Virus record (IMG/VR): IMGVR_UViG_2639763115_000005
DNA length: 2,751 nucleotides
DNA from: a virus
Lineage: Duplodnaviria; Heunggongvirae; Uroviricota; Caudoviricetes
Reading direction: 5' to 3' (one strand)
The translations under genes were made by a program, and so were the position numbers. Under the pieces are notes generated by a model. That model saw only the letters and a list, made by a program, of their open reading frames with translations. It made no database searches and was not told the DNA's origin. Within the stretch, counting starts at the first letter, position 1, and each line of letters starts with the position of its first letter. Positions 283-2,751 of the stretch are shown in pieces.

Positions 283-290
283 GCTGGTGG
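283..290 (+). other. Chi recombination hotspot octamer 5'-GCTGGTGG-3' (top-strand orientation), in the non-coding leader
   Basis: Exact octamer read directly at 283-290. Activity depends on a RecBCD host and is not shown by sequence. Confidence 0.6.
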
Positions 291-353
291 TGACTGGTTG
301 TTGTGTTCCATTTCTACAGAACAAAATCACAGAAACTATACCCAATAGTTATA

Positions 354-382
354 TTGAATCAATGATGAGACAGCCTCATATT
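354..382 (+). promoter_or_regulatory. Weak sigma70-like promoter candidate (TTGAAT, 17-nt spacer, CATATT) upstream of the DUF968 gene
   Basis: TTGAAT at 354-359 and CATATT at 377-382, each 4/6 to consensus, with a 17-nt spacer. Expression could equally come from read-through of an upstream phage promoter. Confidence 0.15.
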
Positions 383-487
383 TATCAGAACTGGTGTACG
401 TCCAATATCGTCACTGGATAATCTCCGTCAGGCTTCCTTACTCCGAACGATCACCGCGTCCGTCCCGCACATTCCAGCAACGCATCT

Positions 488-493
488 GGAGGT
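488..493 (+). promoter_or_regulatory. Shine-Dalgarno (GGAGGT) for the DUF968 gene
   Basis: GGAGG at 488-492, 4 nt upstream of the GTG start at 497. Confidence 0.5.
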
Positions 494-496
494 AAC

Positions 497-1546
497 GTGC
501 GAGTATTACTTCGACCTGTTCTGGTACCGGAACTCGGGCTGGTGATCGTTAAGCCGGGCCGTGAATCCATGCCGGTATTCCACAATACCCGGGTACTGGT
601 GGAGCCGGAACCGAAAAGCATGCGTAATCTGCCGTCCGGGGGCGTTCCTGCCGTTCGCCAGCCGCTGGTGGAAGACAAAACATTGCTGCCGTTTTTCAGT
701 AACGCACGGGTGATTCGTGCTGCTGGTGGTGCTGGTGCATTGTCTGACTGGCTGTTGCGCCATATTAAATCCTGCCAGTGGCCACACGGCGATTATCATC
801 ACAGCGAAACCGTCATTCACCGTTATGGTACCGGCGCAATGGTGTTGTGCTGGCACTGCGACAACCAGTTGCGTGACCAGACCTCCGAATCACTTGAGCA
901 ACTTGCTCACCAAAACTTGTCAGCATGGATGATTGACGTCATTCGTCACGCAATGAATGGCACACAGGAGCGGGAATTATCGCTGGCTGAATTATCCTGG
1001 TGGGCGGTCCGCAATCAGGTGGCGGACGCGCTACCGGAAGCGGTATTACGTCGTTCGCTGGGGTTGCGTGCGGAAAAAATCCGCTCAATGTACCGTGAAA
1101 GCGACATCGTACCGGGAGAGCAGACCGCCACCAGCATACTGAAACAGCGCACAAAAAATCTTGCGCCGCTGCCTCACGCCCACCAGCAACAGAACCCACC
1201 ACAGGAAAAGACGGTGGTCAGCATTGCCGTTGATCCTGAGTCTCCGGAATCTTTCATGAAACGACCTAAACGTCGCCGCTGGGTTAACGAGAAATACACA
1301 CGCTGGGTGAAGACACAGCCGTGTGCGTATTGTGGTAAGCCAGCCGACGATCCCCATCACCTGATTGGTCATGGTCAGGGCGGAATGGGGACAAAATCTC
1401 ACGATATTTTCACGCTACCGCTGTGTCGGGAGCATCACAACGAGCTTCATGCGGATCCTCTGGCGTTCGAAGAAAAGCATGGTTCTCAGGTTGATTTAAT
1501 TTTTCGTTTTCTTGATCACGCCTTTGCAACTGGCGTGCTTGGGTAA
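497..1546 (+). CDS. DUF968-family (YdfU-like) prophage protein, with a C-terminal HNH-like Cys/His motif; function uncharacterised
   Basis: 1050-nt ORF (349 aa) from GTG 497 to TAA 1544-1546. GTG is the only start codon in the open frame after the in-frame stop at 419-421, and it has a GGAGG SD. C-terminus reads CAYCG...DPHHL...SHD...LCREHHNELH, which resembles an HNH/His-Me finger pattern; a second cluster (CQWPHGDYHH...CWHCDN) lies at residues 93-122. Length and position (upstream of Q) match my recollection of YdfU-type DUF968 proteins. Confidence 0.8.
   Translation: MRVLLRPVLVPELGLVIVKPGRESMPVFHNTRVLVEPEPKSMRNLPSGGVPAVRQPLVEDKTLLPFFSNARVIRAAGGAGALSDWLLRHIKSCQWPHGDYHHSETVIHRYGTGAMVLCWHCDNQLRDQTSESLEQLAHQNLSAWMIDVIRHAMNGTQERELSLAELSWWAVRNQVADALPEAVLRRSLGLRAEKIRSMYRESDIVPGEQTATSILKQRTKNLAPLPHAHQQQNPPQEKTVVSIAVDPESPESFMKRPKRRRWVNEKYTRWVKTQPCAYCGKPADDPHHLIGHGQGGMGTKSHDIFTLPLCREHHNELHADPLAFEEKHGSQVDLIFRFLDHAFATGVLG
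664..671 (+). other. Chi octamer GCTGGTGG (top-strand orientation) inside the DUF968 CDS
   Basis: Exact octamer at 664-671, spanning codons for P-L-V-E. Confidence 0.6.
722..729 (+). other. Chi octamer GCTGGTGG (top-strand orientation) inside the DUF968 CDS, within a tandem near-repeat
   Basis: Exact octamer at 722-729, in the tandem 9-mer TGCTGGTGG / TGCTGGTGC (721-738) that encodes the Gly/Ala-rich stretch AAGGAGA. A 7/8 near-Chi follows at 731-738. Confidence 0.6.
1128..1135 (-). other. Chi octamer on the bottom strand (top strand reads CCACCAGC)
   Basis: CCACCAGC at 1128-1135 is the exact reverse complement of GCTGGTGG. Confidence 0.6.
1180..1187 (-). other. Chi octamer on the bottom strand (top strand reads CCACCAGC)
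   Basis: CCACCAGC at 1180-1187 is the exact reverse complement of GCTGGTGG. Confidence 0.6.
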
Positions 1547-1552: not shown

Positions 1553-1558
1553 TGAGTG

Positions 1559-1933
1559 ATGCTCATAGATTTGGTTTTACCTTACCCGCCGACGGTGAAC
1601 ACTTACTGGCGACGCCGTGGCAGCACATATTTTATCTCGGAGGAGGGAAAGCGTTATCGCCGGGCTGTGGCGCTTATTGTTCGCCAGCAGCGGCTGAAAT
1701 TAAGCCTGTCCGGAAGGCTGGCGATAAAGGTGATTGCAGAGCCACCGGATAAGCGTCGTCGCGACCTGGACAATATCCTGAAAGCACCGCTGGATGCGCT
1801 GACGCATGCGGGAGTGTTAATGGACGATGAGCAGTTTGATGAAATCAATATCGTTCGTGGTCAGCCAGTATCTGGTGGACGTCTGGGGGTGAAGATTTAC
1901 CCCATAATGCATGAAGAGCAGGTCAAAAAATGA
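1559..1933 (+). CDS. rusA: RusA-family Holliday junction resolvase (crossover junction endodeoxyribonuclease)
   Basis: ORF ending at TGA 1931-1933. The ORF track starts at GTG 1556, but ATG 1559 has better SD spacing, so I place the start there. The protein contains PDKRRRDLDNILKAPLDALTHAGVLMDDEQF, which closely matches my recollection of the E. coli RusA core (RRRRDLDNL...DALT...DD) that carries the catalytic acidic residues. Size (about 124 aa) fits the family. Confidence 0.85.
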   Translation: MLIDLVLPYPPTVNTYWRRRGSTYFISEEGKRYRRAVALIVRQQRLKLSLSGRLAIKVIAEPPDKRRRDLDNILKAPLDALTHAGVLMDDEQFDEINIVRGQPVSGGRLGVKIYPIMHEEQVKK

Positions 1934-2751
1934 AACTGGAAGATTTACCGAAATACTACTCCCCAAAATCCCCTTGCCTGACCGATGCATCGGCCTCAAC
2001 GTCAAAAGATGCGCTGAGTATCACTGATGTGATGGCCGCGCAGGGCATGACACAGAATCGGGCTGAGATGGGGTTTTCTGCGTTCCTGGGGAAAATGGGC
2101 ATCAGTATGAATGACAGGGCGCGGGCAACAGAATTACTGGCAGATTATGCACTCAGTCGGTGCGATCGTGTGGCGGCGTTGAGAAAACTTCCGGCAGAAA
2201 TAAAACCGGTAGTGATGCGCATTATGGCTTCGTACGCTTTTGAGGATTATGCCCGCAGCGCAGCGAGTAAAAAGCAGTGCCCTTGTTGCTATGGGGAAAA
2301 ATTTATTGAAAGCGTAGTTTTTACAAACAAGGTCCAGTATCCGGATGGTAAGCCGCCGGTATGGGCAAAGTGTACGAAAGGTGTGTATCCGTCTTACTGG
2401 GAAGAATGGAAAAAAGTCAGGGAGGTGGTAAAAGTTGCCTGTCCGGAGTGTGGCGGAAAGGGTGAGGTTTCCACCGCCTGTAAGGATTGCCGTGGGCGTG
2501 GTGTCGCCATTCACCGTGAAGAGTCGGTAAAACGTGGTATGCCTGTTATCAGAGACTGCCAGCGTTGTGGTGGTCGTGGCTATGAAAGACTACCATCAAC
2601 GGAGGCATTTAATGCTATATGCGAGGTGACAAACCAGATAACACGCGCGTCATGGGAAAAAACAGTTAAGAAATTCTATGATGCGCTGGTGACCCGGTTT
2701 GATATTGAAGAAGGATGGGCTGAGCGGCAGTTAAAAAAGGTAACTAGGTAA
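1930..2751 (+). CDS. Late-gene antitermination protein Q (phage 82 / QuuQ-type), with a cysteine-rich CxxCxGxG zinc-ribbon region
   Basis: 822-nt ORF (273 aa) from ATG 1930 to TAA 2749-2751. The ATG overlaps the RusA stop (ATGA at 1930-1933). N-terminal motifs (KYYSPKSP, DVMAAQGM) and the C-terminal end (YDALV...VTR) match my recollection of Q82-family antiterminators. Four Cys motifs are read directly: CPCC, CPECGGKG, CKDCRGRG, CQRCGGRG. The position after a RusA gene is typical for Q. Confidence 0.8.
   Translation: MKLEDLPKYYSPKSPCLTDASASTSKDALSITDVMAAQGMTQNRAEMGFSAFLGKMGISMNDRARATELLADYALSRCDRVAALRKLPAEIKPVVMRIMASYAFEDYARSAASKKQCPCCYGEKFIESVVFTNKVQYPDGKPPVWAKCTKGVYPSYWEEWKKVREVVKVACPECGGKGEVSTACKDCRGRGVAIHREESVKRGMPVIRDCQRCGGRGYERLPSTEAFNAICEVTNQITRASWEKTVKKFYDALVTRFDIEEGWAERQLKKVTR

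Follow-up and report, generated by a model that had tools for sequence, protein, structure and literature searches.

Why should one short stretch of a prophage carry five exact copies of the recombination signal Chi, in both orientations, and why should four of these lie within a single gene? The stretch, hereafter the window, is a 2,751-nucleotide sequence from the virus record IMGVR_UViG_2639763115_000005 (Caudoviricetes); the gene encodes a member of the DUF968/YdfU family, and the octamer is GCTGGTGG, which, as the preliminary description of this sequence presumed, its host E. coli does use as Chi (PMC12315714). A functional reading of the cluster is supported by sequence statistics and comparative data: it is probably a genuine, selected group of sites for the RecBCD enzyme, located in the nin/Q region of a lambdoid prophage lacking an encoded RecBCD inhibitor, and would thus be a local case of Chi enrichment between the replication origin (ori) and the packaging site cos. 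The sites and the gene that holds most of them are as follows, each slot being numbered by its position in the gene.

497..1546, top strand, DUF968/YdfU gene (HNH/His-Me finger nuclease family), with four exact Chi and three 7/8 slots
283..290, top strand, exact Chi, intergenic, upstream of the prophage hok/rem region
538..545, top strand, 7/8 Chi (GCTGGTGA), slot s42; exact Chi in 6 close homologues
595..602, top strand, 7/8 Chi (ACTGGTGG), slot s99 at the V-L-V-E motif; exact in 10 homologues from 5 lineage clusters
664..671, top strand, exact Chi, slot s168 at P-L-V-E (ccG CTG GTG Gaa)
722..729, top strand, exact Chi, slot s226 at A-G-G (GCT GGT GG), the best conserved top-strand slot
731-738, 7/8 Chi
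996..1003, top strand, 7/8 Chi (CCTGGTGG), slot s500, with a Cys to Ser residue change in the window
1128..1135, bottom strand, exact Chi, slot s632 at A-T-S (GCC ACC AGC)
1180..1187, bottom strand, exact Chi, slot s684 at A-H-Q-Q (gcC CAC CAG Caa), in a poorly conserved linker

The five exact copies had been placed correctly in the preliminary description, at 283-290, 664-671 and 722-729 on the top strand and at 1128-1135 and 1180-1187 on the bottom strand, as had the near-matches at 538-545 and 731-738 and the location of four copies within the DUF968 open reading frame (ORF; 497-1546). The local excess that it proposed is likewise borne out, since dinucleotide-preserving shuffles of the window contain 0.13 Chi on average and 2 at most, none of 200 reaching five. 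When one mismatch is tolerated, 13 sites are found where 2.4 are expected, and Chi with its overlapping neighbour octamer makes up the most repeated octamers of the window. Duplication was considered as a source of the copies and rejected: they are not embedded in longer direct or inverted repeats, and the exact stretch shared among copies is at most 11 nt. A T precedes four of the five (TGCTGGTGG, at 282-290, 721-729, 1128-1136 and 1180-1188), which hints at a preferred 5' flank. At the density of the K-12 chromosome, with 1008 Chi in 4.6 Mb (PMC12315714), the expectation per genome is about 0.055 clusters in which five Chi fit into 905 bp. Such a cluster is rare yet, with many genomes scanned, indecisive alone, and independent evidence was therefore sought in relatives.

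The most immediate alternative is that the octamers are a by-product of coding, the DUF968 motifs C-W-W, A-G-G, V-L-V-E and A-T-S yielding Chi when written in common E. coli codons, with no selection for Chi itself; all in-gene copies do lie in contexts of common or preferred codons. Synonymous permutation within the ORF gives 0.58 expected Chi, and codons drawn from the usage of 17 neighbouring genes give 0.54, against the 4 observed; at least four occur in 0.05-0.06% of synonymous trials (P about 5e-4). The suggestion in the preliminary description that the cluster might be purely a codon by-product did not survive this comparison. The DUF968 protein sequence does lift the expectation about 2.5-fold over chromosomal density (0.55/kb versus 0.22/kb), yet with four sites present the cluster is not explained by protein sequence.

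Homologues were scanned with one genome per species, which gave 32 loci. Their record titles name Escherichia, Shigella, Enterobacter, Citrobacter, Kosakonia, Phytobacter, Pantoea, Rosenbergiella, Buttiauxella, Superficieibacter and Symbiopectobacterium, with a few non-enteric taxa. Four of the loci (L005, L009, L014 and L032) are titled Veillonella, Geobacteraceae, Caulobacter or Leifsonia; their proteins are 86% (L005) and 91% (L032) identical to E. coli DUF968 or pattern with enterobacterial homologues (L009, L014), and these records are probably contaminating or mis-binned contigs. Three further loci (L028, L029 and L031) proved to be frameshifted pseudogenes whose low "identity" is artefactual, and were excluded from codon tests. 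The codon alignment comprised 27 homologues and the window (n=28). Clustering at 80% amino-acid identity defined 13 lineages, with one representative taken from each. Four-fold degenerate sites among the 13 are essentially saturated (mean identity 0.36), so that lineages can be treated as roughly independent at synonymous positions.

Across the homologue loci Chi occurs at 2.65/kb within DUF968 and at 0.51/kb in the 3-kb flanks. Weighted by lineage, the top-strand density is 1.6/kb in the gene versus 0.53/kb in the flanks (P 8e-5) and the bottom-strand density 0.76/kb versus 0.09/kb (P 4e-5). Under synonymous permutation the 13 lineages would be expected to carry 9.3 top-strand and 0.99 bottom-strand Chi; they carry 21 and 9, respectively, values reached in none of 5000 permutations for either strand, making 30 against 10.3 for both strands. 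A count made blind to Chi gives the same picture, in that GCTGGTGG is the commonest coding-strand octamer across lineages and has the largest excess, ranking first among some 10,000 observed; its reverse complement has a z of about 9, and the remaining top octamers overlap one or the other. These figures are difficult to reconcile with a coding by-product, which would also leave unexplained the maintenance of the count while the individual slots turn over.

Among octamers, TGCTGGTG has the second largest over-representation in the DUF968 lineages; in phages LLS and P1 it likewise takes second place in abundance (PMC12315714).

The sites recur at homologous gene positions, namely 42, 99, 168, 226 and about 500 on the top strand and about 151, 632, 684 and 700 on the bottom strand. 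Those of the window at 538, 595 and 996, each one base short of Chi, correspond to slots 42, 99 and 500, which hold exact Chi in other members. Slot s226 is exact in 12 of the 28 aligned sequences, and in 10 of 13 lineages its Ala is encoded by GCT, compared with 11% at other conserved Ala columns (P 5e-8 to 3e-6); a general preference for certain codons at conserved residues was rejected for this slot on that ground. Slot s632 is exact in 12/28, from four lineages, despite differing flanking synonymous sites: all four lineages with A/T-T-S use xCC ACC AGC, with variable Pro and Ile codons next to it, and AGC accounts for only 3% at other conserved Ser columns. The same bottom-strand site is found in phages ST64B, cdtI, SfV and Stx2a_WGPS2. 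Slot s684 is exact in all eight members of the Escherichia/Shigella clade, and other lineages have alternative bottom-strand slots nearby. Top-strand sets in the Escherichia clade are {168, 226}, {226}, {42, 168, 226}, {42, 99} and {42, 226}, or one to three sites per gene, a pattern that looks like turnover under selection for number rather than for any given position. Conservation among homologues, which the preliminary description had made a test of function, holds in part: Chi recurs at homologous slots, and the copy at 664 is found in only two of the 28. Outside the gene, the intergenic Chi at 283 has an aligned counterpart in Tritos as well as in a prophage of E. ruysiae, and is deleted in mEp460_ev081; its retention in Tritos is a further feature that coding constraints would not predict.

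The window itself corresponds to the nin/Q region of an E. coli lambdoid prophage of the Qin/Tritos type. It is 99.96-100% identical to E. coli chromosomes, and one base separates it from that of strain 2017-02-2CC (NZ_AP027764.1, L039 19672-22422). There it belongs to a prophage remnant of about 25 kb (L039 4341-29000) in the rspB-ydfJ interval, the Qin site, which retains int, xis, early, replication, nin, Q and lysis genes. An intact 48.9-kb relative occupies the same site in strain AR_452 and has the lambdoid order int, xis, early left, repressor, replication, nin (DUF968, RusA), Q, lysis, terminase, head and tail. The early-left region has only an exonuclease fusion, a protein of 823 residues whose 3'-5' exonuclease domain is DnaQ-like; by record annotation, the gene order of this region recurs in Tritos and mEp460_ev081. 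Pfam searches of nine annotated genes, the large exonuclease being the first and DUF977 the last (int, xis and small unannotated ORFs being unscanned), gave DnaQ-like exonuclease, DicB, DUF1482, DUF1391, YdaT_toxin and DUF977, with three genes unmatched, and detected no Gam or strand-annealing protein; the PGAP annotation agrees in listing no anti-RecBCD gene (Gam, Abc2 etc.). The link drawn in the preliminary description to phages without Gam is thus upheld, both by this prophage and by published evidence of Chi accumulation between ori and cos in lambdoid phages of this kind (PMC3784561, PMC12315714). The DUF968/PdcB gene has matches in 186 phage records; the contents of nine phages with the gene are listed here.

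Tritos, 9 top-strand and 2 bottom-strand Chi; in DUF968, three top and both bottom
mEp460_ev081, 7 top-strand and 2 bottom-strand Chi; in DUF968, two top and both bottom
AR_452 prophage (intact relative), 6 top-strand and 2 bottom-strand Chi; left 27 kb free of Chi, DUF968 at 0.85 of the map
ST64B, 17 top-strand and 3 bottom-strand Chi; in DUF968, two top, then one bottom
cdtI, 12 top-strand and 5 bottom-strand Chi; in DUF968, two top, then one bottom
Stx2a_WGPS2 (first 50 kb), 9 top-strand and 5 bottom-strand Chi; in DUF968, two top, then one bottom
SfV, 17 top-strand and 5 bottom-strand Chi; in DUF968, two top, then one bottom
Hafnia phage yong2, 13 top-strand and 5 bottom-strand Chi; in DUF968, one top, then one bottom
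Vibrio phage Her (41 kb), 11 top-strand and 4 bottom-strand Chi; in DUF968 (31% identity), two top, then one bottom

In five of nine phages, DUF968 is the densest or co-densest 1050-bp window for Chi. The bottom-strand pair within it is the only one in the genomes of Tritos and mEp460_ev081, and in seven enteric phages every bottom-strand Chi (27/27) lies between the immunity/replication genes and cos. All Chi of the AR_452 prophage fall within the right 44% of the phage map, those of the top strand at 0.56-0.92 (Kolmogorov-Smirnov P=0.029). None of the lambdoid phages compared has annotated Gam, Bet or Exo; nor was any DUF968-bearing phage with annotated Gam found among them, so that they offer no contrast between phages with and without an anti-RecBCD function.

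These comparisons bear on a second alternative, that the sites reflect amelioration of a resident prophage, driven by the host. In its favour, the prophage that holds the window copy is defective and located close to the terminus, its top-strand Chi are co-oriented with the leading strand expected from the K-12 map and gene order, and a caveat of this kind has been raised for prophage data sets (PMC12315714). However, Tritos and mEp460_ev081, which are functional phages, carry the same sites, and phages infecting Salmonella, Shigella, Hafnia and Vibrio share the slots; Chi density in the gene also exceeds the chromosomal average more than tenfold, in a prophage that elsewhere has little Chi. 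We regard host-driven amelioration as highly improbable.

RecBCD recognises Chi only from its 3' side, and in lambda it enters the right cos end freed by terminase. Under the favoured reading of the cluster as selected Chi sites, cleavage of cos by terminase would allow RecBCD to enter the free right end and move leftward through the lysis genes and Q, whereupon it would encounter the top-strand Chi one after another, first 722, then 664 and 283, each from the 3' side. Because each Chi is recognised only sometimes, a series would raise the chance that RecBCD switches to RecA loading, which would then lead to recombination and to the concatemers required for packaging. Conserved motifs of DUF968 would make Chi cheap to encode in this gene, and selection at synonymous sites would keep some 2-3 top-strand and 1-2 bottom-strand copies while the slots turn over. 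The top-strand sites do face the right (cos) end by gene order, and the bottom-strand pair faces left, where there is no defined end known. More speculatively, the bottom-strand Chi at 1128 and 1180 would act only on RecBCD moving rightward, which might enter a few kb further left, at ends close to ori generated by rightward rolling-circle tails or by broken rightward forks. Such ends are proposed on the precedent of lambda replicons, which are bidirectional or unidirectional either way, the unidirectional form favouring the sigma (rolling-circle) mode (PMC3985674). Opposite-strand Chi fall outside the current model of entry at cos only, and could indicate a second RecBCD entry point in phage replication.

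A broader proposal may be framed from these features, in which DUF968/YdfU/PdcB genes constitute a conserved, bidirectional "landing pad" for Chi, situated between ori and the packaging site of temperate phages that depend on RecBCD, with opposite-strand Chi positively selected to stop RecBCD moving rightward. If true, it would mean that phages using Chi guard two DNA-end entry points and not cos alone; we hold this extension to be doubtful at present.

Several observations weigh against the selective interpretation, some of which also favour a coding by-product. Protein motifs alone would give about 0.7/kb top-strand Chi, two to three times baseline, and the protein-based expectation is already 2-3x the genome average. 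The motifs C-W-W, A-G-G and V-L-V-E predispose some of the slots. At the C-W-W slot (s500; TGC TGG TGG) the octamer is complete in 15 homologues, as it is in P1 pdcB and Vibrio phage Her; this slot is largely protein-driven, because Chi arises there whenever Cys is encoded by TGC; codon preference is a possible explanation of that slot. A non-Chi octamer, CGCTGGGT (encoding R-W-V), also exceeds its permutation mean (16 versus 7), an excess similar in fold, which implies some codon conservation unrelated to Chi. The copy at 664 is, on its distribution, a recent gain, close relatives having GCTGGCGG or GCTAGTGG at slot s168, and this limits the support it can lend. The prophage of the window is defective, the remnant in 2017-02-2CC being without cos, terminase, head and tail genes; a rationale at the level of the phage cannot operate in this copy, whose Chi cluster is probably a relic and now simply a chromosomal Chi hotspot. 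The orientation of the bottom-strand sites is inactive under the cos-entry model, and the account of them based on ori-proximal ends is one that we infer. Finally, more DNA would be preserved by an order of the sites other than the convergent one (three on the top strand, then two on the bottom). With the present order each RecBCD would pass the opposite set first, and the shielding from either direction that the preliminary description advanced is conjectural. Against the coding by-product stand the quantities given above, namely 4 copies versus 0.55 expected in the ORF, 30 versus 10.3 across lineages (9 versus 0.99 on the bottom strand), and the codon choices at s226 and s632; we consider it unlikely that the cluster arose in that way.

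Enrichment of both orientations in one interval, as seen in the 27 bottom-strand Chi confined between immunity/replication genes and cos, is an observation that would fit a third alternative, transmission drive. Here, in regions of frequent recombination, a broken allele without Chi would be degraded and recopied from a partner, while one with Chi would survive, so that both orientations would build up in the mosaic nin region with no benefit to phage or host. Turnover of slots is compatible with this, as is the fact that the region is common to many co-resident prophages, with matches in 4659 of 5426 genomes at up to 9 places in each. The idea is nevertheless purely theoretical, and it leaves unexplained both the strong top-strand bias and the correlation with absence of anti-RecBCD functions (PMC12315714); we regard it as very unlikely. 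A fourth alternative, that the octamer is the target of some other factor, such as the DUF968 HNH nuclease or a regulator, and resembles Chi by coincidence, would fit the concentration of sites of both orientations in and around one nuclease gene. Against it, the sequence is the exact E. coli Chi octamer, it is enriched throughout these phages with a strand bias fitting RecBCD entry at cos (PMC12315714), and there is no evidence for another binding factor; we judge it extremely improbable.

The interpretation of the cluster as selected Chi sites accords with two published surveys. Lambdoid phages and prophages without a RecBCD inhibitor were found by Bobay, Touchon and Rocha (2013, PMC3784561) to be enriched in Chi, mostly between ori and cos. 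In the study of Zheng et al. (2025, PMC12315714), Chi lies mainly on the top strand and clusters toward the right end, the enrichment is unexplained by codon usage, growth of phage LLS is helped by RecBCD, and a "Tritos" type is recognised that has a nuclease only, without an anti-RecBCD function. By its sequence features, the present prophage fits the testable characteristics of their Chi-rich class without anti-RecBCD genes: it is lambdoid, has no Gam-like inhibitor, has a Tritos-type early-left region (int, xis, large exonuclease, ydfD, dicB), and carries at least four top-strand Chi toward the right end in the orientation active for RecBCD entering at right cos. The intact relative fits the Chi threshold of their classes A/B, at least four top-strand Chi with right-end clustering at a Kolmogorov-Smirnov P<0.1. 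It differs from the class in a modest total (6 top, 2 bottom), mostly in one gene; further differences are the two conserved opposite-strand Chi, of a kind called inactive in PMC12315714, and the defective state of the window copy. With the earlier survey (PMC3784561) it shares Chi between replication genes and terminase in the absence of an inhibitor; the analysis there used 5% interval bins, blind to strand and gene, whereas homologous DUF968 codon slots and a synonymous-site test are considered here.

The general principle, Chi in place of a RecBCD inhibitor, was thus already published in 2013 and 2025, and the advance is one of detail. Neither PMC3784561 nor PMC12315714 names ydfU/DUF968 or analyses bottom-strand Chi, and a literature search found no report of Chi for this gene; on the sequence comparisons made here, the DUF968/PdcB family as a recurrent hotspot of Chi at the level of a gene, and conserved opposite-strand Chi within that family, both appear to be new. 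The locus offers a compact and experimentally tractable case, in which temperate phages lacking a RecBCD inhibitor may be seen writing Chi into genes codon by codon. For annotation, dense Chi in the nin regions of prophages may be better viewed as a signature of phage lifestyle than as noise.

Engineered tandem Chi arrays, and protection by Chi of linear or rolling-circle DNA, were reportedly described by Dabert et al. in 1992 and Kuzminov et al. in 1994. As in such arrays, serial Chi would raise the odds of RecBCD being switched off before further DNA is degraded; the arrays, however, were artificial and in one orientation facing the end, whereas the sites described here lie in coding sequence and face each other. 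Another parallel is phage P1, which is Chi-rich and dependent on RecBCD (Subramaniam and Smith 2022, as cited in PMC12315714). Its DUF968 homologue pdcB (27% identity; L045 2905-3948) contains three top-strand Chi in about 1 kb, one at the C-W-W motif, 0.9-1.9 kb from pac (4850). P1 differs in being non-lambdoid, in packaging by headful from pac, and in having no bottom-strand Chi in pdcB. Vibrio phage Her (L044; Vibrio anguillarum) has 43% G+C, and from composition we estimate about 0.3 GCTGGTGG per strand, which its 11 top-strand and 4 bottom-strand copies greatly exceed; this content suggests that the same octamer is used and selected in its Vibrio host.

Two further genes of the window lie downstream of DUF968 and are as follows, with the near-match that one of them contains.

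1556..1933, top strand, RusA Holliday-junction resolvase gene (Pfam PF05866), with one 7/8 Chi
1871-1878, 7/8 Chi in rusA, at the motif V-S-G-G-R
1930..2751, top strand, antiterminator Q gene (Pfam PF03589), marking the rightward (late) direction of the phage map

The assignment of the DUF968 ORF itself rests on Pfam PF06147 (E=5e-76; score 254.9 bits, gathering cut-off 27.8), supplemented by a weak HNHc_6 match and an HNH-like C-terminus, and the ORF is annotated identically by PGAP in identical genomes. Small ORFs at 99-251 and 281-421 have no Pfam match, and no RNA gene was found in the window by Rfam (E up to 1) or ARAGORN, the sole match being a chance long non-coding RNA. The rusA genes of SfV, cdtI, ST64B and Stx2a_WGPS2 have a top-strand Chi at gene position 303, within R-M-L-V-E (at L040 30889, L037 39737, L036 33519 and L038 12801, respectively); the near-match in rusA of the window was considered as the same slot and rejected, its context being V-S-G-G-R.

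Relative to most E. coli genomes, 825 bp are missing from the window at 406-407 (L001 20408-21232), comprising the hokD toxin gene and the 5' part of a rem-like ORF, whose truncated 3' end occupies 406-496; this junction is found in only one of 5426 complete genomes, that of 2017-02-2CC. A cargo island, inserted in the prophage between the replication genes and hok/nin, abuts position 1 of the window (L039 13420-19671; L001 13750-20000). It encodes a BCCT transporter, a DUF2254 protein, a LysR regulator, a gamma-glutamylcyclotransferase and a major facilitator superfamily (MFS) transporter, the MFS gene being split in two ORFs in strain 2017-02-2CC. Within DUF968, the octamer CGCTGGGT and its extension TGGGTTAA mark a site (window 1269-1290, R-R-W-V-N-E) that is conserved across lineages at the nucleotide level for no obvious reason.

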